From positions 2,888-66,887 of the IMG/VR virus record IMGVR_UViG_3300019927_000008: a stretch of DNA of 64,000 nt. The stretch is one strand, 5' to 3'. The notes under the pieces are model-generated. The model searched no databases, was not told where the DNA came from, and saw only the letters and a list, made by a program, of their open reading frames with translations. Origin of the DNA: a virus. Shown here one piece after another: positions 10,031 to 64,000 of the stretch. Position 1 is the stretch's first letter; each line of letters starts with the position of its first letter. The position numbers and the translations under genes were made by a program.

Positions 10031-10531
10031 ATGACAGAGAACACCGAAGCTGTTGCTGAAGAAGAGCCTGAAGAAGATAGTGCGAACATCAGCCGTCTCC
10101 GAGAGATGGCACTCCGTGGTGACGACTATCGTGAAGTCATCGAGGACTTCACGTACTACGGGTTGGAGGGCGACCTCTACGTCCGTCCGCTGACAGACCC
10201 CGAGTTCCTTCCCATCGCTTCCTTCCTCGAAGAGCGCCTTGGCCTCGATCCCGAGGAAGCTCAGGAAGCGATGGAGGAAGAGAAGGACGGTCAGGGCAAC
10301 ATCAGCGCCGAGCAGTTCGACAAGGAATTTGTCGCCATCATGCACCAAGCGGCGGCAACGGGGATCGACACAACCCAAGGCATCGCAGAGGGCGAAGACG
10401 AAGAGGGTGTCGCTGAAATTCTGAAAATGCTTCAGGGTGGCAAGTCCCTCGTGATCGCAGAACGGGTGTTGGAAATCTCGTCTGACGCCGAGAAGGCCGA
10501 GCAGTTTCGCAGAGATGGGGGCGGCGAGTAG
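10031..10531 (+). CDS. Tail assembly chaperone (gpG-like)
   Basis: Between tube and tape measure; ends in GGG GGC GGC GAG TAG. Confidence 0.7.
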   Translation: MTENTEAVAEEEPEEDSANISRLREMALRGDDYREVIEDFTYYGLEGDLYVRPLTDPEFLPIASFLEERLGLDPEEAQEAMEEEKDGQGNISAEQFDKEFVAIMHQAAATGIDTTQGIAEGEDEEGVAEILKMLQGGKSLVIAERVLEISSDAEKAEQFRRDGGGE

Positions 10532-48491: not shown

Positions 48492-50306
48492 CTACTGTCT
48501 CCACGGAGCCGCCTTCGGGAAGTCCCAATGGGTCGGAGCTTCGTCGGTGATCGCCTCGACGAAGTAGTCCGGAGGGTTCGTCCGGCTCATCACCGTGTCG
48601 AACTTCTTGTCGATCACGTAGAAGCTCGCGGCTTCTTCAGGCTCCGGACCCCGAACCGCCCGTCCGACAGCTTGGATGATGTTCGTCGCCGCCTTCTCCA
48701 TGTACCATTGCCACTCGTTCTGCTCGTTGAGCAGATAGGAGACACGACTGTCCCCCATGTAAGCGTAGGGGACTTTGACGAGGACTTGCCACCGACACCG
48801 ATCTTCGTAGAGGTCTGTCCCCTGCATCATGGTCGGAGAGATCAGGATGTCTTTGTCGCTGTTCTGCCAGCGGTCGATGATGGCGTCCTGATCGAAGTCT
48901 TCTTCGTGAACGATGCAGTTCTCTTCACCGAGGGATTCTCCTATCTTCTCCGCTCGGCTGTAGGACACCGAATGGATCAGACCCTTCTCTCCCTTGTGAT
49001 GGGAGTGAATCTCACGGATCATGTCCATCGCTTCGGGCCAGTTCTTCTCTTCATCATCGCCGGACATCTCACCGACCATCGTGTTGAGGTGAATCCGACG
49101 ATGATCCACCGGGAAGGGCGTGGGTTTCGAGATGAACTTTGTACGCCCCGGAAGGCCGAGCCGTCGCGCCCACTTCTTGACGTTACCCCGGAAGGGGATC
49201 GTCGCTGAAGTGATGAGCCGACGCCGACCACGGGACCACACGAAGTCAGCGAGGAAGTCGTCAACCCGAACCGGCTTGACTTCGATTCCCTTCGTTGTTT
49301 CTCTGGACCCCGGAATCCGCACTTCGTTGATGTTGACGACCCAACCACGCCCCGCTTCGTAGGTCTTGAGACAGTAGTCGAGCTTCCGGAGGATGTCTTC
49401 ACACTCTTCGACTTGGCTCTGCTTTTCCTCGATGTCTTCGTACTGATCGACGAAGTTCGAAGCTCGCCCTCTGATCTCCATGAGAAGGTCTTCGACGTGT
49501 TCGAGGCGATCAGCGTTCCAGTCTGCGCGATCACCAGCATCACCGTAGACTTCTTCGGGAAGCGACCACGGCGAGAGAGTGAAGCCAGCGAAGAGGCTCG
49601 ATGCCTGTCCTTCGGAGTTGTGACCCTCGTCTACCGTGACGAGATCACGCCGGTCGAAGGAAATCTGCTCGCCACTCTCGATCCGAACCGGAACGTAGTT
49701 GTCTACGATCAGCATTGCGAAGGTGAGAACACCGATCCCATCCTCCATCGCTTCGGCTTTTGCTCTCCAGTAATTACACCCGGCCTTCTCGCGGCAAGAC
49801 TCGTCGGGAGAAGAACGAACAGGACAGTCAGCACAGTTCGTCCCACCTTCTTCGCAGTAGTAGTCTCGCCGCGACTTCAACATCGAGACGTAATCCTGAA
49901 GGTCGTCGTCTTCAGCGAGTTGGTTACGGAGTTGCTTCTGCGGTGTCGTGTAGAACGACTTCCCTGATTGAAGCCCGTCGATGCTGACGCCGAAGTGATC
50001 CCGAAGCTCGTCCTGTCGCTGGTTCAGCGCCGTGATGACACGGCCAACAGCGACGTTGAACGGCGACTTCCCGATCCCGGTCGGCCCCTCGATGATTACG
50101 TTGTCGTAAGAGTCGAGGAAGAAGGCATCGAGTGTTTCGTACAGGATTTCATCCTGATAGTCTCGAAAGCCGGGGAACGGGAACAGTTCATCACCGATGT
50201 CGTGAAGGTACGACTTGAAGCCCTCCCGCGTTTCGGGGTAGTCCGAGTATTTGGTTTCGAGCGATACCACAGGGTCCGTATCGAGCATCATTGAGAATGG
50301 ATTCAT
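48492..50306 (-). CDS. DinG/XPD-family SF2 helicase with Fe-S cluster
   Basis: GPTGIGKS, four-Cys cluster, VDEGH, TSAT, QGTDL and QAVGRAVR motifs. Confidence 0.9.
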   Translation of the reverse strand: MNPFSMMLDTDPVVSLETKYSDYPETREGFKSYLHDIGDELFPFPGFRDYQDEILYETLDAFFLDSYDNVIIEGPTGIGKSPFNVAVGRVITALNQRQDELRDHFGVSIDGLQSGKSFYTTPQKQLRNQLAEDDDLQDYVSMLKSRRDYYCEEGGTNCADCPVRSSPDESCREKAGCNYWRAKAEAMEDGIGVLTFAMLIVDNYVPVRIESGEQISFDRRDLVTVDEGHNSEGQASSLFAGFTLSPWSLPEEVYGDAGDRADWNADRLEHVEDLLMEIRGRASNFVDQYEDIEEKQSQVEECEDILRKLDYCLKTYEAGRGWVVNINEVRIPGSRETTKGIEVKPVRVDDFLADFVWSRGRRRLITSATIPFRGNVKKWARRLGLPGRTKFISKPTPFPVDHRRIHLNTMVGEMSGDDEEKNWPEAMDMIREIHSHHKGEKGLIHSVSYSRAEKIGESLGEENCIVHEEDFDQDAIIDRWQNSDKDILISPTMMQGTDLYEDRCRWQVLVKVPYAYMGDSRVSYLLNEQNEWQWYMEKAATNIIQAVGRAVRGPEPEEAASFYVIDKKFDTVMSRTNPPDYFVEAITDEAPTHWDFPKAAPWRQ

Positions 50307-52501
50307 TAGTCGTCAGCCGCCTTGAAGTCAGCATCGAGCGTTTTGTAGTGCGTCTTCTCTACTTCGATCTTCTCGGCTCGCTCTCGAAGCTCCGCTTTCA
50401 CAGCGTTCGAAGAGACACCCGCTCCGGTCGAGAGCTTCTGAAGTAGCCGTTCCGCCTCTCGATCATCGAGGGTGATCGTTTCTTCTCTCTTCGTCTGAAC
50501 GTCTTTGTCTGTTTCTTCGCTGTTCTCGTGCGTCTCCCAACCGACTGTGATTTGACTCATGTTATTTTTGAGGTGCGATCAGAATTATTCCAAGGATCGC
50601 CGCCGACAGCGACCCGACCATCGCTCCGAAGGATATTGCTGTGAAGACACCCCCACCATAGCCTGTCACATCGAGGAGGGCCATGGTTATGACTGCGGTT
50701 AGGGCTGTCCAACACGACGCTAAGATCATTTCGTGGTCTGTCATGGAGTGAATCGAAGTACCCACTTTTTCCAAGAGATCACTACTTCGCCGCTGTCGGG
50801 ATCGGGGTCAACACTAACAAGCTCCGATTCTTCGTCACCGGAGACGAATCTTTCTTCGACTTCGATCACGGCCTTCTCGATGTAGTCGTCGAGTTGATCC
50901 CACTCACCTCCTATCTCGGGAAGGTCGTGTTCCGTTCCGGAGAGATCGGTCAGAGTGTCGTACTCGAAGCGGTACGTCTTCGTCTCTTCGCACTCCCACC
51001 CTTCACCGTAGCGCCCTTCGACGTAGCGACATTGGAGGTGGAAGATCGCCGCTCCATCCTCGATGATGGGGTCGGCTCGGTGGTCATCCATCTCCCACTC
51101 GTGTTCGTGGTGATGGGGTTCGATGATGCCTCCCCGGATGAGGTCGCGTCGGGAAGTACCGGGTGGGTAGCCCCCCATCTACAACCCTCCGTTAAGGCTA
51201 CTGTTCTGACACTCGGTACAGACATCGCCTATGTTCAGAACGGCGTTGCTACACCCTATTTTACGACACTTGATTACACTCATTACAGGATTTCCTTCCC
51301 ACAGTCTTCGCACCGCGCTTTCTGCACCGGAGGCTCGTCCGGGTGGCGTTGCACTTTACCACTCTCGATGTTCACCGATCCACAGTACGGGCAATCACCG
51401 AGGCCATTGATTTCCAGAAGTGCCCCCGTTGAGTTGATCTGGATTCGGTCATCATCGAGAATCCATTTCAGGGCTTTCGCTTCACCAACAGCACGTTTCC
51501 CTCCACGTTCTTCTGGAATGTATTCACCGTCCAGTTCAGCCAGCTTGTCTCGAACTTCTTTTTCTGATTTCATGACTTATGTCTCCGAAGTTGCGTCTTA
51601 CCGAACGAAGTCCCGAAGGTTCGACAGCCCGGCCTTCCCGAGGCCATCAACATCCAGAAGCTCACCATCATCCGCTTGCTGAATGTCCAGAGTGGTACTG
51701 TAGCCGTCATCGTGGAGATTATCAGCCGTCTTCTCCCCGATGTAATCGACTTCGGACCAGTCCATCTCATCGAGGTCCATCATGTCGATGCCGGAGTCGG
51801 GTTTGTGTTCGAAGTGCCCCGCTTCGATCTCGTTGTTGAAGGACACTCTTCGCTCCATCCGGTGTGTGTTGTCCTTGTTCCGACCCGGAGTGTCACTCCG
51901 TAGCAGAACGATCTCTTCGTCGATGTAGAGAATCTGAACGTGTTCGTTGTGTCGCGTTTCGTAGACCTGTCCAGCTTCGGGTTCGACTTGAGTGATCTCT
52001 TTCATCATGTATCGTGGTATGCCGCGATCCAGTCTTCGTAGCCTCGCTCTTCTGCCTCGTCGTTCAGTAGACTGACGAGGAACGTTCGGTGGTGATCCTT
52101 CAGCGGCCACGGATCACTAACCATCATCAATTCGAGGAGTGTACGAAACTCCCAATAGCTCAGATCAGGGTTCGCATCTCTCGGGGTTTTCATGAATCAG
52201 GCTCGTTGAGGTCCACGTCCTCCCACTCGTCTTGAAGTTCTTGCTTCGTGATGCTGTTCTCGACTACATCAGCTAACTCTCGGATGTAGTTCGCCAACGG
52301 CGTCGGGTCTTCCTCGAAGCCATCTTCTTCCTCGATGGCGTCAGCAAGTTCCCGAGCTTGGTCAGCTTCGTAAGCCGCTTCTTCACCACCTGCGGTGATG
52401 ATAACCGTGAATCCACTCTCGGTCGTTGTCGCTTTGATTTGGCCCGTCTCTTGGTTCAGAATACTTTTCGTCACGTACTGCTGTCGTTCTGTTTCTTTCA
52501 T
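50306..52501 (-). other. Cluster of small accessory ORFs, including an HhH-motif protein (51598 region)
   Basis: Coupled ORFs; VDYIGEKTA and VDGLGKAGL helix-hairpin-helix repeats. Confidence 0.6.
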
Positions 52502-52535
52502 GTAGCGTGGTTTTCGGTTCCCATTATAAGGACTT

Positions 52536-52598
52536 GGGCATCGTCAGGGCAACAGCGTCCATCTCGTTGCCAACACCGGGAAGCCCGGTGTTTCGCCC
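52536..52598 (-). ncRNA. Type II hammerhead ribozyme HHR1
   Basis: GGGC-GAAA-C[ACCGG/CCGGU]GUU^[GGCAAC/GUUGCC]-CUGACGA-U-GCCC; loop I GGAC can pair with tail GUCC. Confidence 0.9.
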
Positions 52599-52738
52599 GT
52601 CAGAAGTCTCGCGCCGTTCGCTCTTCGAGGTGATCCGGACAGAGTTTGTCTCCATCGTAGTCATGGAGATTGTCTGTCGCGGTGCAATGCTCACAGGTTT
52701 CCTCACTTTCATTCCCCCAAGGGGTTATTCCGGGGATT

Positions 52739-54331: not shown

Positions 54332-54771
54332 GCTGGCCGAACGAAGGCGTCAGGATCGAGCATGGCACGTTCGATGATGAACTGTGCCGTCTCGTATCCC
54401 TTCCCTTCGGGAGCCTCAAACTCGGCAGAGTCGATCTCCCGAGTCGGTCCATCTTGGTAGTCGATCTCCGCCGCTTCCGGACTCTCCGTAAGTTCCGTGT
54501 TCGGAGAGTTTGACGGAGCGGAGTTTTGTACGAAGACGGAACTTCGTGTTTCGTAGAACAGCGAGAGGTGTGTAACGTCGCTCATTGGTCGTTCCTCCAC
54601 GTCATCGCTTCAGCGAAGCGGCCCATGATCGCGCCGAGGCTGGTCGTGTCGTACTGTTCTTGAATGTTCACGTCGCTGTAACTATAGCCGCCGGATGTAG
54701 ACTGCGTGTTTTTGTGTTCCATTAGGGATTTAGACTGCGTGTCACACTTTCCAACCCCCCTCAAGGGTTGA

Positions 54772-54838
54772 TGGCCTTCCTCTTCATGGGGAACGCGGCC
54801 AGTCGTTCCCGACGCCGGGAAGCCCGGCGTTTCGTCAT
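54772..54838 (-). ncRNA. Variant type II hammerhead ribozyme HHR2
   Basis: C-GAAA-C[GCCGG/CCGGC]GUC^[GGGAACG/CGUUCCC]-C(A)UGAAGA-G; loop UGGCC pairs with tail GGCCA; directly after the promoter at 54838-54868. Confidence 0.65.
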
Positions 54839-54870
54839 TAAGATCGAAGCCCGTCGCTCCGAGTCTTAGC

Positions 54871-56034
54871 CTACTGCGAGGTGGCTTCCTCCAGACGTTC
54901 TTCGGCGTCGTTGATCCGGCTCCGAGTTTCCTGCGGGATCGGTGCGCCGTTCGCCGCGTTCTGGATGTCCTGACGGCGGCGGAAGAAGGCCCGAAGGTCG
55001 TCGTAGACATCTCGGGGAGCGACCTGTGCCTGCCGAAGGCCACGCTCCTTGGCGACCTGTCGGACGGCGGCTTCCACCGAAGGAAGCTCGCTGTAGCTCC
55101 GGTACACCTCTTCGAGAAGGTCCGGGTCCACCTCGAAGACGCCTTCGAACTGCTCCTGATCGGTGAAGACCGGCTCCGTGATGTAGCTGAAGAACCGCAT
55201 CAGCATCGCCAGCTCGTTCACCGAGCAATGGCAGTACGGGTTGAAGAGAAGCCCGTCAGCGAAGTCCGGCTCGACGTTGAACGCCGACCGAATGTCGTGC
55301 TTGTCGTCGGAGTGGGAGTGCTGAAGGCCACACTCATCGACCGGACACTCGAAGGATCGAACCGAAGAAGAACCACCACCGATCATGGACTGAGCGTCCT
55401 GAAGAACGCCCATCACTTCGCCGTCCACGTCGGAGTCCATGTCGGACATGAACTGTTCGAGGGTGTTACTCATGCTCTCACTTCGACCCTCATCGAGCGT
55501 GCTGTGGTTCCCGAGGCTCCACATCCGAACTTCGTAGCTCTCTTCGTCGTCTTCAGTCGCGGTCTGTTCCTCGTCGTTGCCGTCGCCGTTCTGCATGAAG
55601 TCGTACATGGTGGTGTTGTCTTCGTCGTCGTCGGTTTCTGCACTTTCCGTCTCGTCGTCGCTGAAGAGGACGGGTTCGATCTCGGGGTCTTCGTCGGTTG
55701 CCTCACTTTCCGACTCGTCGCCTTCGAACAGTTCGGGGTTGATCTCTACGACTTCGTAGTCGTTGAAGAGGTCCCGAGAGTTTCTGACCGAGGCGAAGTA
55801 GTGAGCTTTCTCTTCGTCGTCGTAGACACTATCATTGTCTATCGCTTCTTGAACGTCACCAGTTTCCACGTTGACGATTGCGAACTTCGTTTCACTACTC
55901 CGTTCTTCTACGTGGTAGGAACCATCTCGGACGATGGATCGAGTCATCCGAGACGCCCTACCCTTTGCATCACCTTTGTCGTCGTAGGTTTGGTACTCTG
56001 TACCGTCTTCGCCAACTACTACGTATTCCGTCAT
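54871..56034 (-). CDS. Hypothetical acidic protein with C/H metal-binding cluster
   Basis: CPVDECGLQH and CHC motifs; follows a mini-tRNA leader. Confidence 0.6.
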   Translation of the reverse strand: MTEYVVVGEDGTEYQTYDDKGDAKGRASRMTRSIVRDGSYHVEERSSETKFAIVNVETGDVQEAIDNDSVYDDEEKAHYFASVRNSRDLFNDYEVVEINPELFEGDESESEATDEDPEIEPVLFSDDETESAETDDDEDNTTMYDFMQNGDGNDEEQTATEDDEESYEVRMWSLGNHSTLDEGRSESMSNTLEQFMSDMDSDVDGEVMGVLQDAQSMIGGGSSSVRSFECPVDECGLQHSHSDDKHDIRSAFNVEPDFADGLLFNPYCHCSVNELAMLMRFFSYITEPVFTDQEQFEGVFEVDPDLLEEVYRSYSELPSVEAAVRQVAKERGLRQAQVAPRDVYDDLRAFFRRRQDIQNAANGAPIPQETRSRINDAEERLEEATSQ

Positions 56035-56148: not shown

Positions 56149-56820
56149 TTATCTTCTATCCGGAGTGTTTTCGATGGCCCACAACGCCTTCGCCACGAAT
56201 TGAAGCTCCGAGATGGTAAGTCGATACTCACCAACCTCCCGTTTGACGTGATCTTCGGGAGACTCGATTTCTACGTCGTAGGCTTCGACCTTCGAACCAG
56301 CCCCGATGATCGAACCGTCACGGTTCTTGCTGATGACATCGGGATGGTAGAAGTCACCTTCGTAGGTCAACAGAACGTGACCGTTGATGAACCACCCACC
56401 TTCCCGCTCTTCGATCCGCTCCGACAGCGGCTCGACGAAGGCTTCGAGAGCTTCGACCCTCACCATGTCTTCCCGCACCTTCTCGAAGAGATTGATGATG
56501 GGTTGAACGCTCTTTCCATCCCCCTCTTCGTACATCTCTGCCATCGCCTCGATCAGGTCGGTCTTGTGATGAGCGCCGAGGGTCAGATCAGTATTTCCAA
56601 CCCGAAGGGTGTAGGCCTCATCATTTGAAGGGATGATGGTTACTCTCGGCTCTTCTTCGGCTCCTTGAGACTGCCAGACTTCGTTTCCTGCATCGAGAAG
56701 CCCGGCAAGGCCATGACCGTAGATCAGCTTGTTGTAGTCCGAAGACTTCGTTCTGGTTACTGTGCTTCCATCATCCGTCATAACGAGGTAGTTAGTCCCG
56801 TTATCGTCTAAGACTTGCAT
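56149..56820 (-). CDS. Hypothetical protein
   Basis: Clean ORF downstream of the GHKL ATPase. Confidence 0.55.
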   Translation of the reverse strand: MQVLDDNGTNYLVMTDDGSTVTRTKSSDYNKLIYGHGLAGLLDAGNEVWQSQGAEEEPRVTIIPSNDEAYTLRVGNTDLTLGAHHKTDLIEAMAEMYEEGDGKSVQPIINLFEKVREDMVRVEALEAFVEPLSERIEEREGGWFINGHVLLTYEGDFYHPDVISKNRDGSIIGAGSKVEAYDVEIESPEDHVKREVGEYRLTISELQFVAKALWAIENTPDRR

Positions 56821-57015: not shown

Positions 57016-59856
57016 CTACTGATTTGAGAGGGTTTCACGTAGCTCTTCGCCGCTCTTCTTTGCCGGGTCGATCCCGAGATCGTGGAAGCCGAGGTACAAC
57101 TGCGCCTTCTTGTCGTCCAACGACGAAGGCATCATGTCGTAGATTTTGCTACCGTCTTCCCACTTCGGAGTGCTGTCCATCAGCTTGTACGTCGAGAGGG
57201 AACCGGAGAGTTTGTACCACTTCGAAGGGTTACGACGTTCGTACTTGCTCCGACTAAGCCGAAGGCAAGTGAAGTTCGGACGCCGAAGACTCTCTCCGTT
57301 ACGACTCAAGTAATTGAAGACCCATTGCGCTCGGTCCAAGACCTCCTTTCCAGCGACGGCGTAGAGGGTGTCTCGCTTCTCCGCTTCGTCAACATCGCTC
57401 GGATCATCGTCGCTGTGATAACCACCATCGTAGTTATCGAGGACTTTCAGCCAGTCGATCTGATCCCGAACGTCGTCGAGAACACGTTCTCGAACCCCTT
57501 CCATGTCGTCACCGAGGAGCTTCGTCGAAGTCGCGTGACCCCTTACTTTAGGCTGGTAGGTCAGAACCACCAACCGATCATCCGTCACCAACTCTTCGGG
57601 CGTCATCGCTCCGTCTTCGGTGGCGATCAGAGTGGACCGTGACCACTCTTTGTATTCCTCGATGGTGACGACGTTATCGACTCCTTCGAACTGCTCACGC
57701 TCTTTCTTGCTGACGCAAGCGATGGCGGCGTAGTCAGCCATGCCGTAGTGATCGCTGATGTTAGGCCCCTTGCCCTTCCCGAAGAGAATCAGCTTGTCGT
57801 GACCACCGATCCGCTTCCCTTTGTTGAGTCGATCTCGAACCCGCTTGATCGAGGTTCGCTGGTCGATGGAAGACGAATCTCCGTCGCTTCGAATCTTGAG
57901 GTTTCGTTCCTCGACCTTCTCGGCCTTCGACTTTCGACCGAACTTCTTGCCCTTCTCAACACGATCCCGGTGAATGGAGTCAGGAACGTCGTAGTCGTGA
58001 TCGTCGTCCTGCTTCAGCGGGACATTCTTCAGCTTCTTGAAGCCGAAGTTCTCTTTGAACGGAGTGTACTTCGAAGAAGACACCACGATGATTTCTACGT
58101 CATCATGGGTGTTCTTCGCAACCTTCCAGTATTTCGTGAAGTTCCCTCCGGTTGAAGCCGCCATGTAGACTTCTCCGGGGTCGTTCTTCAGAAGCTCACC
58201 GAGCATCATCTCCCGTCGCCGTCGCTTCTTCGTCGAAGAAGACGCGCTTCGATGACAATGCTCGATCTTATTGAACAGCCCGTAAAGCTGATCGAGACTT
58301 TCGTCGTCGAAGTCCGGAAGTTCATCTCGCTGGTTCATGAAGCCCTCGAACTTCCGACGCTTCTTGAGAACACGACGATGGCCGTGGTAGTTGACCATCT
58401 TCTTGAAGAGGTTCCAGTCTTCGGGCTTGCCTCGAATAGCTTCAGCGGGATGGTCAGCCTCTTCCATCCGCTCTGCGATCTTGCTGACCTTGCTCACTTC
58501 TTTGGACTTCACCGTTTCCTGAACGTGAGCGAAGAACCGCTTCGTCTCCGAAGACTTCTTGAGTCGGTCCCGGTCCCCGGTGGGTTGAGGCATCGGAACG
58601 TCGTCGTCGTGAAGTTTGGCGATCTGATCTTCGTGCTTCGTCGTTCGGTACACCTTGTTGTTGTAGTGGTAGAAGCCACGGTGGGGACCGGCGACGATCC
58701 GACTCTGTTCGTCGTGAAGCTGAATCGCACAGTCCCAAAACGTCTTGATGTTGTACCGGGTGTTTCGGTCGATGGCGATGGAGACGAGGAAGGTGTCTTC
58801 ATCATCGCTACTTCCGTATCCCGAAGTGTCTATCACATCAGGACCGGCAACCACCGAAAACTCACCGGGGCGATCCACCACTACTTCAGGATCGTCGTAG
58901 CTCTCGATGAAGTTCGAGGCTTCATACTCTTCTTCGACCGGGGTAGCTCCGGCATCGTGTTCCCGGTACAGCACCGGGATACGAAGCTGTTCGGTGTAGT
59001 CTTCGATCCAACTCTGAAGGTTGGATAGGTCGAAGCTATCCTGAACAGGGAGCTTGAAGCGAGTCCCGAAGAACCCATCTTCGACTTCACCGGGAAGGGC
59101 GTTGGCTCCGCCGAGGTAGCTGTAAGCCCGGAAGCCTTCTCTGGTTCCGCCGTTTTCGCTTGGCTGGATGCTCCGAGTCTCTACTTCCATCCCGCCATCC
59201 TTTCCGTGAACCAGAGCCGACGACTCGGAACCGACACCGAACATCCCGCCGGTTTCTTCGTCGTCACCATTGCCACCTTGGAAGATTGTGTTGAAGTCTC
59301 CCGCAAATTCGACGGGAGTCATGCCGATCCCGTTGTCTTCGGTGATGATCCGCCGAGCGTCGAGGAACACATCGAAGGTGATCGTCGGATCGTAACCGAG
59401 GGTTCTGGCCGCCTCAACCACCTCACTAATGGGTCGAGGGACTTCCATGACTCGAACGTCAGAGGGATTATCCATGTCGTCTTTCGACGCCACGGTTTCT
59501 CCGGTTTCAGCATCGACGAACTTCGTGATGGTGAGCCACCCTTCGGGGTACTCCGGGGAGTGCCGGATCAGGTCTTTACAGCGTCGAATACAGGCCGTCT
59601 CGTGGTTCTGGAGCCATTCCCGAGGCCATGCCTTGTCGCTTTCGTAGATGAAGTCCGAGAGAAATTCTCCTGCTCCCTTCGCTGACTGCGTTTCGAGAGC
59701 CGACCGTCCGATCTCCTGAACGAGCTGATGATCCTCACCAACCGCTCCGATGTCCTTCACTTGAGTCGAACCCCACGACTTCGACTCGTCGATAACCGGG
59801 GCTTCAGTTTCCGCTTCTTTCTGCTCCATCGTCGTAAGTTCGGTGTTGTCACTCAT
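57016..59856 (-). CDS. Large GHKL (Hsp90/MORC-like) ATPase, rIIA-like architecture
   Basis: REWLQN, EDNGIGM, GMFGVG and GTRF Bergerat-fold motifs in the N-terminal third; 946 aa. Confidence 0.8.
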   Translation of the reverse strand: MSDNTELTTMEQKEAETEAPVIDESKSWGSTQVKDIGAVGEDHQLVQEIGRSALETQSAKGAGEFLSDFIYESDKAWPREWLQNHETACIRRCKDLIRHSPEYPEGWLTITKFVDAETGETVASKDDMDNPSDVRVMEVPRPISEVVEAARTLGYDPTITFDVFLDARRIITEDNGIGMTPVEFAGDFNTIFQGGNGDDEETGGMFGVGSESSALVHGKDGGMEVETRSIQPSENGGTREGFRAYSYLGGANALPGEVEDGFFGTRFKLPVQDSFDLSNLQSWIEDYTEQLRIPVLYREHDAGATPVEEEYEASNFIESYDDPEVVVDRPGEFSVVAGPDVIDTSGYGSSDDEDTFLVSIAIDRNTRYNIKTFWDCAIQLHDEQSRIVAGPHRGFYHYNNKVYRTTKHEDQIAKLHDDDVPMPQPTGDRDRLKKSSETKRFFAHVQETVKSKEVSKVSKIAERMEEADHPAEAIRGKPEDWNLFKKMVNYHGHRRVLKKRRKFEGFMNQRDELPDFDDESLDQLYGLFNKIEHCHRSASSSTKKRRRREMMLGELLKNDPGEVYMAASTGGNFTKYWKVAKNTHDDVEIIVVSSSKYTPFKENFGFKKLKNVPLKQDDDHDYDVPDSIHRDRVEKGKKFGRKSKAEKVEERNLKIRSDGDSSSIDQRTSIKRVRDRLNKGKRIGGHDKLILFGKGKGPNISDHYGMADYAAIACVSKKEREQFEGVDNVVTIEEYKEWSRSTLIATEDGAMTPEELVTDDRLVVLTYQPKVRGHATSTKLLGDDMEGVRERVLDDVRDQIDWLKVLDNYDGGYHSDDDPSDVDEAEKRDTLYAVAGKEVLDRAQWVFNYLSRNGESLRRPNFTCLRLSRSKYERRNPSKWYKLSGSLSTYKLMDSTPKWEDGSKIYDMMPSSLDDKKAQLYLGFHDLGIDPAKKSGEELRETLSNQ

Positions 59857-60053
59857 TTTCGTAGAGGGGGGTAACGTCGATTGCTTTCACGCCATCCATT
59901 CCTTCGAACCGCTCATCGGGGTGTTCAAAAGTGACACTCCAATGGGGATCGAACGCCGGTGATTGCTTACTCCAATCAGGATTATCCGGAACGACCTGAT
60001 AGACGTAGGCAACTGGTTCTTTGTCTTTCATTCGAGATTAGTCCCTAAGTCAT

Positions 60054-60114
60054 GGGCATCATCAGGGGAAGGGCGACTAACTCCCTCCCAACAGGGACGA
60101 TCCCTGTTTCACCC
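60054..60114 (-). ncRNA. Type II hammerhead ribozyme HHR3
   Basis: GGGU-GAAA-C[AGGGA/UCCCU]GUU^[GGGAGGG/CCUUCCC]-CUGAUGA-U-GCCC; loop AGUC pairs with tail GACU; starts right after the promoter at 60115-60145. Confidence 0.9.
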
Positions 60115-60145
60115 TAAGACTCTACTCCTAAGAACTTGAGTCTTT
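60115..60145 (-). promoter_or_regulatory. Bipartite viral promoter
   Basis: AAAGACT-N17-AGTCTTA. Confidence 0.7.
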
Positions 60146-63884: not shown

Positions 63885-63915
63885 TAAGCCTCAAAGCCCT
63901 TCGACTTGAGTCTTA
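63885..63915 (-). promoter_or_regulatory. Bipartite viral promoter
   Basis: TAAGACT-N17-AGGCTTA. Confidence 0.7.
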
Positions 63916-64000
63916 CGCCAAGTCGAGGGACTTCACAGCCTCTTCGTAGGAGTCGAAGTCGCCCTTCTTGTCGGTTCGGAACTGAACGGCGTCCTTCTCG

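Follow-up and report, generated by a model that had tools for sequence, protein, structure and literature searches.

A type II hammerhead ribozyme adjoining a promoter-like repeat in a Hafunaviridae-like haloarchaeal virus

Upstream of an HSP90-like ATPase gene of a Hafunaviridae-like haloarchaeal tailed virus, the minus strand at 60114-60048 contains a complete type II hammerhead, all elements of which can be read from the sequence. The stretch analysed (64,000 nt, referred to as the window) comes from a single virus record of 71.8 kb, in which three hammerheads of one family are present. The best explanation for the 60.1-kb element, and one that we consider probable, is an active type II hammerhead, of a ribozyme family carried by Hafunaviridae-like viruses, that is located next to a promoter-like motif, with transcripts most probably starting from or next to G60114.

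Genomic context

The hammerhead sits in a 114-nt spacer upstream of a 60-aa ORF and the HSP90-like ATPase gene. On its upstream side, an ORF at 60418-60146 (minus strand) ends with a TAG stopcodon at 60148-60146. On the downstream side, the 60-aa ORF (59849-60031, minus strand) starts with the ATG at 60031, which would give a leader of 58 nt on the cleaved RNA, and the tail between the GCCC strand of the ribozyme and this ATG reads AUGACUUAGGGACUAAUCUCGA. The 60-aa ORF overlaps the gene for the 946-aa HSP90/GHKL-like ATPase (57016-59856, minus strand), the main cargo of the proposed transcript, and an ORF of 60 aa is also found at the corresponding position in a related metagenomic contig (L009). 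The 946-aa protein is ~40% identical to the annotated 'HSP90 chaperone protein' of HSTV-2, HRTV-7 and HCTV-6 (Hafunaviridae, Mincapvirus), and PF13589 was found in some of its homologues, with no Pfam domains detected in the small flanking ORFs. The helicase encoded at 48492-50306 has 55-57% identity to the helicases of HF1, HF2 and other haloferacalesviruses. A megablast comparison of the locus with phage records gave no match, and a search of sequencing runs for the virus returned one DNA metagenome, with a word share of 6%, and no RNA runs.

Structure of the 60.1-kb hammerhead

The order of the elements along the RNA is that of a type II hammerhead, with stems I and III capped by loops and stem II open, and the three-way junction is the minimum-free-energy fold (ViennaRNA). 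The 5′ strand of stem II (GGGU, 60114-60111, minus strand as for all elements of the ribozyme), which is predicted to form nucleotides +1 to +4 of the transcript, pairs with GCCC at 60057-60054. It is followed by G12, A13 and A14 of the core together with A15.1 (GAAA, 60110-60107), and these four nucleotides are invariant in 20/20 members of the family described below. Stem III is a 7-bp hairpin (ACAGGGA/UCCCUGU, 60107-60091) with a UCG loop, and includes the A15.1-U16.1 pair between A60107 and U60091, which is AU in 25 of the 26 rows of the family alignment. Scission is predicted between U60090 and G60089, directly behind the cleavage triplet GUU (60092-60090); the triplets across the family are GUC, GUU, GUA, CUC and UUU, which all conform to NUH, with C, U or A at position 17. 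Stem I is again a hairpin of 7 bp (GGGAGGG/CCUUCCC, 60089-60066), with a 10-nt loop (AGUUAGUCGC, 60082-60073), and leads into core positions C3-A9 (CUGAUGA, 60065-60059), of which CUGA-GA is invariant in the family with U, C or A at position 7. In the 3′ tail behind stem II, GACU (60051-60048) can form a 4-bp pseudoknot with AGUC of loop I (60078-60075).

The core of the 60.1-kb copy is consensus, and lacks the insertion near C3 (positions 2a and 2b) that is typical of saltern variants. Two features are less usual. The 10.1-11.1 pair is a G.U instead of the usual G-C, as it is in the orthologue on contig L008, and G10.1 is kept. There is also an extra U (60058) between A9 and G10.1, a place which holds a U in 14 members of the family of 20, an A in one and no nucleotide in five. 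One additional nucleotide at this place of the core is known from nature in the CChMVd (+) hammerhead, with its extra A10 (De la Pena and Flores 2001, as cited in PMC1636495). This hammerhead is however a type III viroid ribozyme, has an A instead of a U and relies on a loop-loop contact, not on a pseudoknot.

Read together, A9, the extra U and G10.1 spell AUG. On contig L012 (18118-18147), the downstream ORF can be read in frame from this AUG, which had been taken as the start of the gene by the gene caller, and in the window copy the same AUG reaches a stopcodon after four codons.

Detection and covariation of the hammerhead family

A search of the window with Rfam returned four tRNAs only and left the 60.1-kb site unmatched at the gathering score, and a 401-nt slice of the site gave nothing even at E ≤10. 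When RF02276 (Hammerhead_II) was run on the whole genome, the 60.1-kb site was not reported and the only match was the copy at 52.6 kb, with 31.3 bits versus a cut-off of 37. The elements described here share with RF02276, which covers type II hammerheads of bacteria, phages and metagenomes (Perreault et al. 2011), a pseudoknot of at least 4 bp between loop I and the sequence behind stem II, and the location of several copies next to viral genes, but the copies in the window fall below its threshold or are not reported by it. This is a limit of the curated model and not of the core features of the hammerhead.

The silence of Rfam at this site would fit an intergenic sequence that resembles the hammerhead consensus by chance, a reading that we regard as hardly credible in view of three results. 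A strict descriptor for type II hammerheads matched the window twice, at 60110-60059 and at 52594-52541, and gave no match in 100 shuffles. A covariance model (R2), built independently of the window from 19 homologues in related metagenomic halovirus contigs, matched the window at 60116-60043 with 82.3 bits (E about 5e-22). Finally, an orthologous, covarying element is present in relatives, and the family alignment refutes the chance reading. The original prediction of a hammerhead within 60040-60145 is thus borne out, with all of the elements that it described being present. R2 also matched at 52600-52525 (65.3 bits) and at 54839-54768 (33.6 bits, E about 1e-7).

Covariation was assessed in an alignment of 26 rows with 17 modelled pairs, the pseudoknot not included. 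Standard pairs occupied 96.4% of the cells, compared to 71% in shuffles and 45-58% in controls with slid partners, and changes on both sides were seen in 13/17 pairs. Stem I had compensatory changes in 7/7 pairs (98.3% of cells paired) and stem III in 5/6 modelled pairs (98.6% paired), with 90% of cells paired in the stem II helix. For the pseudoknot, which connects positions 5-8 of loop I with the tail 2-3 nt after stem II, 82% of cells were paired and two of the four pairs were compensatory, with AU, GC, GU and CG at one and CG and UA at the other. An alignment-free check found a Watson-Crick run of at least 4 at the place of the pseudoknot in 20/20 members. Since AGUC/GACU is supported by this covariation and by a Watson-Crick run in all 20 members, this half of the original proposal for the pseudoknot stands. 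The distal pairing that had been offered beside it, UUAGUC/GACUAA (60080-60075 with 60043-60038), is possible only in the 60.1-kb copy and was rejected as it is not conserved, being absent from the 72%-identical orthologue on L008 and from the other members.

Members of the family in related viruses

A protein search with the 946-aa protein gave 75 metagenomic homologues, and eight of the contigs encoding these (L008-L015) were examined. The descriptor identified 18 further hammerheads in these eight contigs, all on the coding strand in short intergenic spacers and all of the same build. Three further copies were added by the first covariance model, one of which is the window copy at 54839-54768, and 28 additional model matches were found in IMG/VR loci. 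A family member is located upstream of the HSP90-like gene in L008, L009, L010, L011 and L012. The complete records of HSTV-2 and HCTV-6, the closest named relatives as judged by the HSP90-like gene, contained no member of this hammerhead family. A search of IMG/VR for related loci with the 946-aa protein returned nothing, and a narrow DNA pattern scan of IMG/VR returned only false positives in coding sequences.

The two sister copies in the window are both on the minus strand. The first (HHR1, 52525-52600, R2 65.3 bits) lies 5 nt after the stopcodon TGA at 52602-52600. It shares its architecture, the GUU triplet, the extra U and the GCCC strand with the 60.1-kb copy, and the stems of the two are unrelated in sequence, so that the match in CUGAUGA/GAAA core, cleavage site and extra U that was originally noted between them was confirmed as one architecture on different stems. 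HHR1 is followed by TTATAA at 52529-52524, located 25 nt before the ATG at 52501, which resembles a leaderless-type promoter. The second sister copy (HHR2, 54768-54839) is preceded by the promoter-like motif, which here starts at 54867. Its core, C-A-UGAAGA, has one base inserted behind C3, and its stem II comprises ~1 bp, with an intact 5-bp pseudoknot (UGGCC/GGCCA). This copy recalls the saltern variants with core insertions that need high Mg2+ (Perreault et al. 2011).

Approximately one third of the family starts 1-5 nt past a stopcodon and lacks a promoter motif, including HHR1, the HF2 hammerhead, L010:17823 and L012:18068. The position relative to a transcript start therefore does not define the family, and these stop-codon copies must act on polycistronic RNA.

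Some further variation was observed in the collection. Two copies, L011:9660-9732 and L012:8648-8721, share an odd core, CUCGAAG(A/U), with a C inserted between U4 and G5, and have intact stems I and III and an intact loop I sequence; these could represent a recurrent functional variant or parallel decay. In an unrelated contig of high GC-content (L034, IMGVR_UViG_3300047320_000035), the hammerhead model matched 11 times over a stretch of about 8 kb, and contigs L027 and L032 had four such matches each, which look like dense intergenic arrays of type II hammerheads.

Comparison with the HF2 hammerhead

Type II hammerheads with a pseudoknot between loop I and the 3′ tail were described by Perreault et al. 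in 2011 (PMC3088659), who found hammerheads in viral metagenomes of salterns and in HF1 and HF2, where 13 nt separate the hammerhead from the start codon of the helicase gene downstream of it. For the major early HF2 transcript, the mapped 5′ end is no more than 3 nt away from the cleavage site of this hammerhead (PMC3088659). It is annotated in GenBank record AF222060.2 as ncRNA HrrHF2_135 (10292-10359, 'predicted hammerhead ribozyme (type II) by RFAM'), and was listed by Dyall-Smith and colleagues among the conserved non-coding features of the HF1 group, with a function that is not understood (PMC7230728). R2 matches HF2 at 10290-10364 with 35.2 bits (E about 3e-9). Since this published hammerhead is in the same family, the 60.1-kb element belongs to a known kind and is, on sequence grounds, an added member of the Hafunaviridae type II hammerheads.

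The two copies have in common that they come from a Hafunaviridae-like virus, have the type II topology with the loop I/3′-tail pseudoknot and related loop I sequences (GUUGGUC in HF2, GUUAGUC in the 60.1-kb copy), and lie among the early/middle genes, with a start codon following after a few tens of nt. They differ in that the HF2 hammerhead carries an insertion where stem I meets the core and lacks the extra U behind A9, whereas the core of the 60.1-kb copy is consensus, with the extra U and the G.U at 10.1-11.1. Furthermore, the HF2 copy comes directly after a stopcodon and has no promoter repeat, while the 60.1-kb copy abuts a promoter-like repeat.

Alternatively, the element could be a conserved structured leader with inefficient cleavage, either decayed or dependent on salt or Mg2+, and serve for protein binding or RNA stability instead of cutting constitutively. 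The G.U closing pair of stem II and the extra U beside A9 are compatible with this, as are the core insertions in the sister copies HHR2, L011:9660 and L012:8648, and the saltern variants tested by Perreault et al. required very high Mg2+ concentrations (PMC3088659). However, the core of the 60.1-kb copy matches the consensus throughout, and none of the positions that are known to be essential varies among the family members. A natural viroid hammerhead tolerates an additional base behind A9, and the G.U is common to the L008 orthologue and retains G10.1. The mapped 5′ end in HF2 also argues for cleavage in vivo within the family, and we consider an inefficient leader improbable.

A promoter-like motif adjoins the hammerhead

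The ribozyme directly adjoins a 30-bp promoter-like inverted-repeat motif on the minus strand (60115-60144, AAGACTCAAG...GAGTCTTA), with block 1 as putative TATA region and block 2 as putative initiator. The consensus of the motif is AAGACTYRA-N15-GAGTCTTA, also written as AAGACTYRA-N15-(G)AGTCTTA, with a fixed spacing. It is present at a minimum of 15 intergenic sites of the genome, and many copies occur in the relatives. Copies on the minus strand are located at 63914, 62240, 56150, 43677, 41243/41209, 35153, 28980, 23400, 22615 and 21754, and on the plus strand at 44937 and 9477, with two more on the minus strand beyond the end of the window at 64000 (65667 and 68057, in the same numbering). 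An RNA hairpin between the two arms of the motif (60144-60116) was judged less likely than an element acting at the DNA level, because the spacing of the arms is fixed and the sequence of the loop is free.

The motif is followed by a hammerhead (at 60.1 kb, 54.8 kb and in several relatives), by a tRNA-like minihelix or by another folded sequence. The copy at 56150 is followed flush by such a minihelix, consisting of an acceptor and a T arm (GGTTCGACTCC; GGTTCGAYTCC). Whatever element comes next, most copies of the motif have a G after the final TTA, and this G, directly behind block 2, is 25-26 nt away from the T of block 1. In the hammerheads that are preceded by the motif, 0-8 nt separate the motif from stem II, without overlap in any case.

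The motif with a tRNA-like minihelix was also seen at L009:13777, L010:13879, L011:14199 and 17095, L012:13742 and L013:13412. The four tRNA matches in the window (42278-43499, minus strand, two strong and two weak) are downstream of the motif copy at 43677, and a 334-aa 'ORF' at 42700-43704, which shares sequence with three of these matches, is probably not a real gene.

In HF2, the class I intergenic repeats were demonstrated to be promoters using reporter assays and primer extension (Russ, Pfeiffer and Dyall-Smith 2021, PMC8707807). Their TATA box begins at position -26, and the first transcribed nucleotide is a G within the gamma motif, for which conservation extends over -7 to +2, with mutations in the TATA box or initiator abolishing activity (PMC8707807). 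Mutagenesis of IR4 (AAAGACTTAAAC..GAGTCTTTAAGTC..CGTCTATTAGAG) showed that the alpha motif is dispensable for basal promoter activity (PMC8707807). The HF2 repeats and the window motif share AAAGACTTAA and (G)AGTCTT..TTAG; block 1 is almost the same as the alpha motif of HF2, and block 2 with the following G (GAGTCTTA and G) resembles the class I initiator (GTCTATTA and G), and also resembles the HF2 beta/TATA motif GAGTCTTTAAG. The class I repeats are however 56-58 bp long with three blocks (alpha, beta and gamma), compared to 30 bp and two blocks here, which makes the assignment of the blocks ambiguous, and they are not followed by hammerheads.

Position of the transcript start

By analogy with the HF2 class I motif, with a TATA box at -26 and a start at the G after TTA, transcription may start at G60114 (± 2 nt), and we give this position an even chance. 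The likeness of block 1 to the alpha motif, which HF2 IR4 can do without for basal activity, speaks against this position. The predicted cut between 60090 and 60089 then removes 25 nt, in agreement with the size of the fragment in the original prediction, provided that the RNA does start at 60114. Folding of an RNA starting at 60114 gave the active junction as the minimum-free-energy structure. For a read-through RNA from 60160 the minimum-free-energy structure was not the active junction and the ensemble was diffuse, although this is weak evidence.

Alternatively, the ribozyme may be real and act only on read-through polycistronic RNA, with the local promoter starting at about 60110-60089. 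RNA from the promoter would then never hold a complete hammerhead, and the ribozyme would give the read-through RNA nearly the same 5′ end. We consider this rather unlikely, but it has several observations on its side. For one HF2 transcript (T-4384), the mapped 5′ end is 8 nt downstream of the same kind of motif and inside the structured element that follows, and applying this geometry here would put the start at about 60106-60110, giving a promoter-initiated RNA without the stem II strand and the GAAA. Block 2 resembles the TATA-bearing beta motif of HF2, and if it is taken as TATA box then the start, 26 nt past its TTA, would be near 60091, only 1-2 nt from the cleavage site. HHR1, the HF2 hammerhead, L010:17823 and L012:18068 all abut stopcodons without a promoter, and inspection of the sequence upstream of the 60.1-kb motif revealed no oligo-T run that could act as terminator, so that read-through RNA should also reach the ribozyme.

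Four features of the motif argue for a start at its end instead. The conserved spacing of 25-26 nt between block 1 and the G equals the distance from TATA box to start in HF2, and the G after TTA is conserved regardless of the element that follows. The spacer between motif and hammerhead varies from 0 to 8 nt without overlap, and a coincidence of start site and cleavage site can therefore not hold throughout the family. The tRNA-like elements likewise begin at the end of the motif.

The region of HF2 with T-4384 (AF222060.2, 4343-4414, locus L037) contains an alpha-like motif, TCTTTG and a flush minihelix (GCTCCG..GGTTCGACTCC..CGGAGC), and the published start, which was determined by primer extension, falls in the linker of the minihelix. 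Either this start truncates the minihelix, or the 5′ end is a processing product.

Proposed processing of the transcript

With initiation at or next to G60114 as the preferred reading, the RNA would fold into a three-way junction consisting of stem II (GGGU/GCCC) and the hairpins of stems III and I, and the 4-bp pseudoknot between loop I and the tail 3′ of stem II would lock this fold. Self-cleavage after U60090 would then shed a 25-nt triphosphorylated leader, an upstream piece ending in the stem III hairpin with a 2′,3′-cyclic phosphate. The downstream mRNA would have a 5′-OH on G60089, which is paired in stem I, and would thus begin with a flush hairpin-pseudoknot end, followed by the leader of 58 nt. 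RNA that reads through from the genes upstream would be cleaved at this position as well, and the mRNA would have one and the same 5′ end by either route. The hammerheads next to promoter-like motifs and those next to stopcodons share the predicted outcome, an mRNA beginning with the first pair of stem I and a 5′-OH, with the hairpin-pseudoknot at its end only a few tens of nt ahead of the start codon. This is consistent with a role in providing a uniform, structured 5′ end and in uncoupling the downstream message from what lies upstream. The exchange of the 5′-triphosphate for a 5′-OH, which was originally put forward as the apparent purpose of the cut, may itself be the selected effect.

After cleavage, the GCCC strand could, as judged by folding, re-pair with the downstream GGG at 60045-60043, which would be expected to disfavour religation. 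In approximately half of the family, GGGA(C/A/U) is found 13-18 nt past the GCCC strand of the hammerhead, and a motif GGGAC(A)CAACC occurs 1-10 nt before start codons on the minus strand of the window, upstream of the ATGs at 56034, 41123, 39463 and 28873. These sequences could function in translation initiation, or in refolding after cleavage.

The position of a self-cleaving ribozyme between promoter and coding region is also found in synthetic insulators of the RiboJ type and in the leader with the glmS ribozyme, where cleavage gives a standardised 5′ end of the mRNA with a 5′-OH that alters RNA degradation. RiboJ-type insulators are engineered and glmS is a bacterial ribozyme controlled by a metabolite, and unlike glmS, nothing at the 60.1-kb copy suggests control by a ligand. 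Circularisation of the cleaved RNA by a viral ligase was also considered, and found to be unsupported since a search of the virus genome revealed no RtcB, a ligase that could rejoin the products of a hammerhead, with the control haloarchaeon Haloferax volcanii carrying one.

Conclusions

The curated Rfam model misses most copies of this hammerhead family, and an alignment of the 20 descriptor hits, the three copies added by the covariance model and the 28 IMG/VR matches would extend detection. Type II hammerheads are common in the genomes of phages and archaeal viruses. The viruses described here provide a natural comparison within single genomes, as members of the same ribozyme family are either flush with a promoter-like repeat or placed after a stopcodon, and tRNA-like elements fill the slot of the ribozyme at other copies of the motif. 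This makes it a testable question whether ribozymes of archaeal viruses set the chemistry and structure of mRNA 5′ ends, and genetic systems for Haloferax and Halorubrum as well as the HF2 reporter system exist for such experiments. We tentatively propose, as a broader possibility, that the early/middle promoters of this clade fire into RNA that is self-processing from +1, be it a hammerhead, a tRNA-like minihelix or another fold, and that the mRNAs shed their triphosphate within seconds. If so, then the 60.1-kb hammerhead would be one instance of a general remodelling of 5′ ends, which could stabilise viral mRNAs through a flush 5′ hairpin with a 5′-OH, or could allow them to escape from a host reader of 5′-triphosphates.
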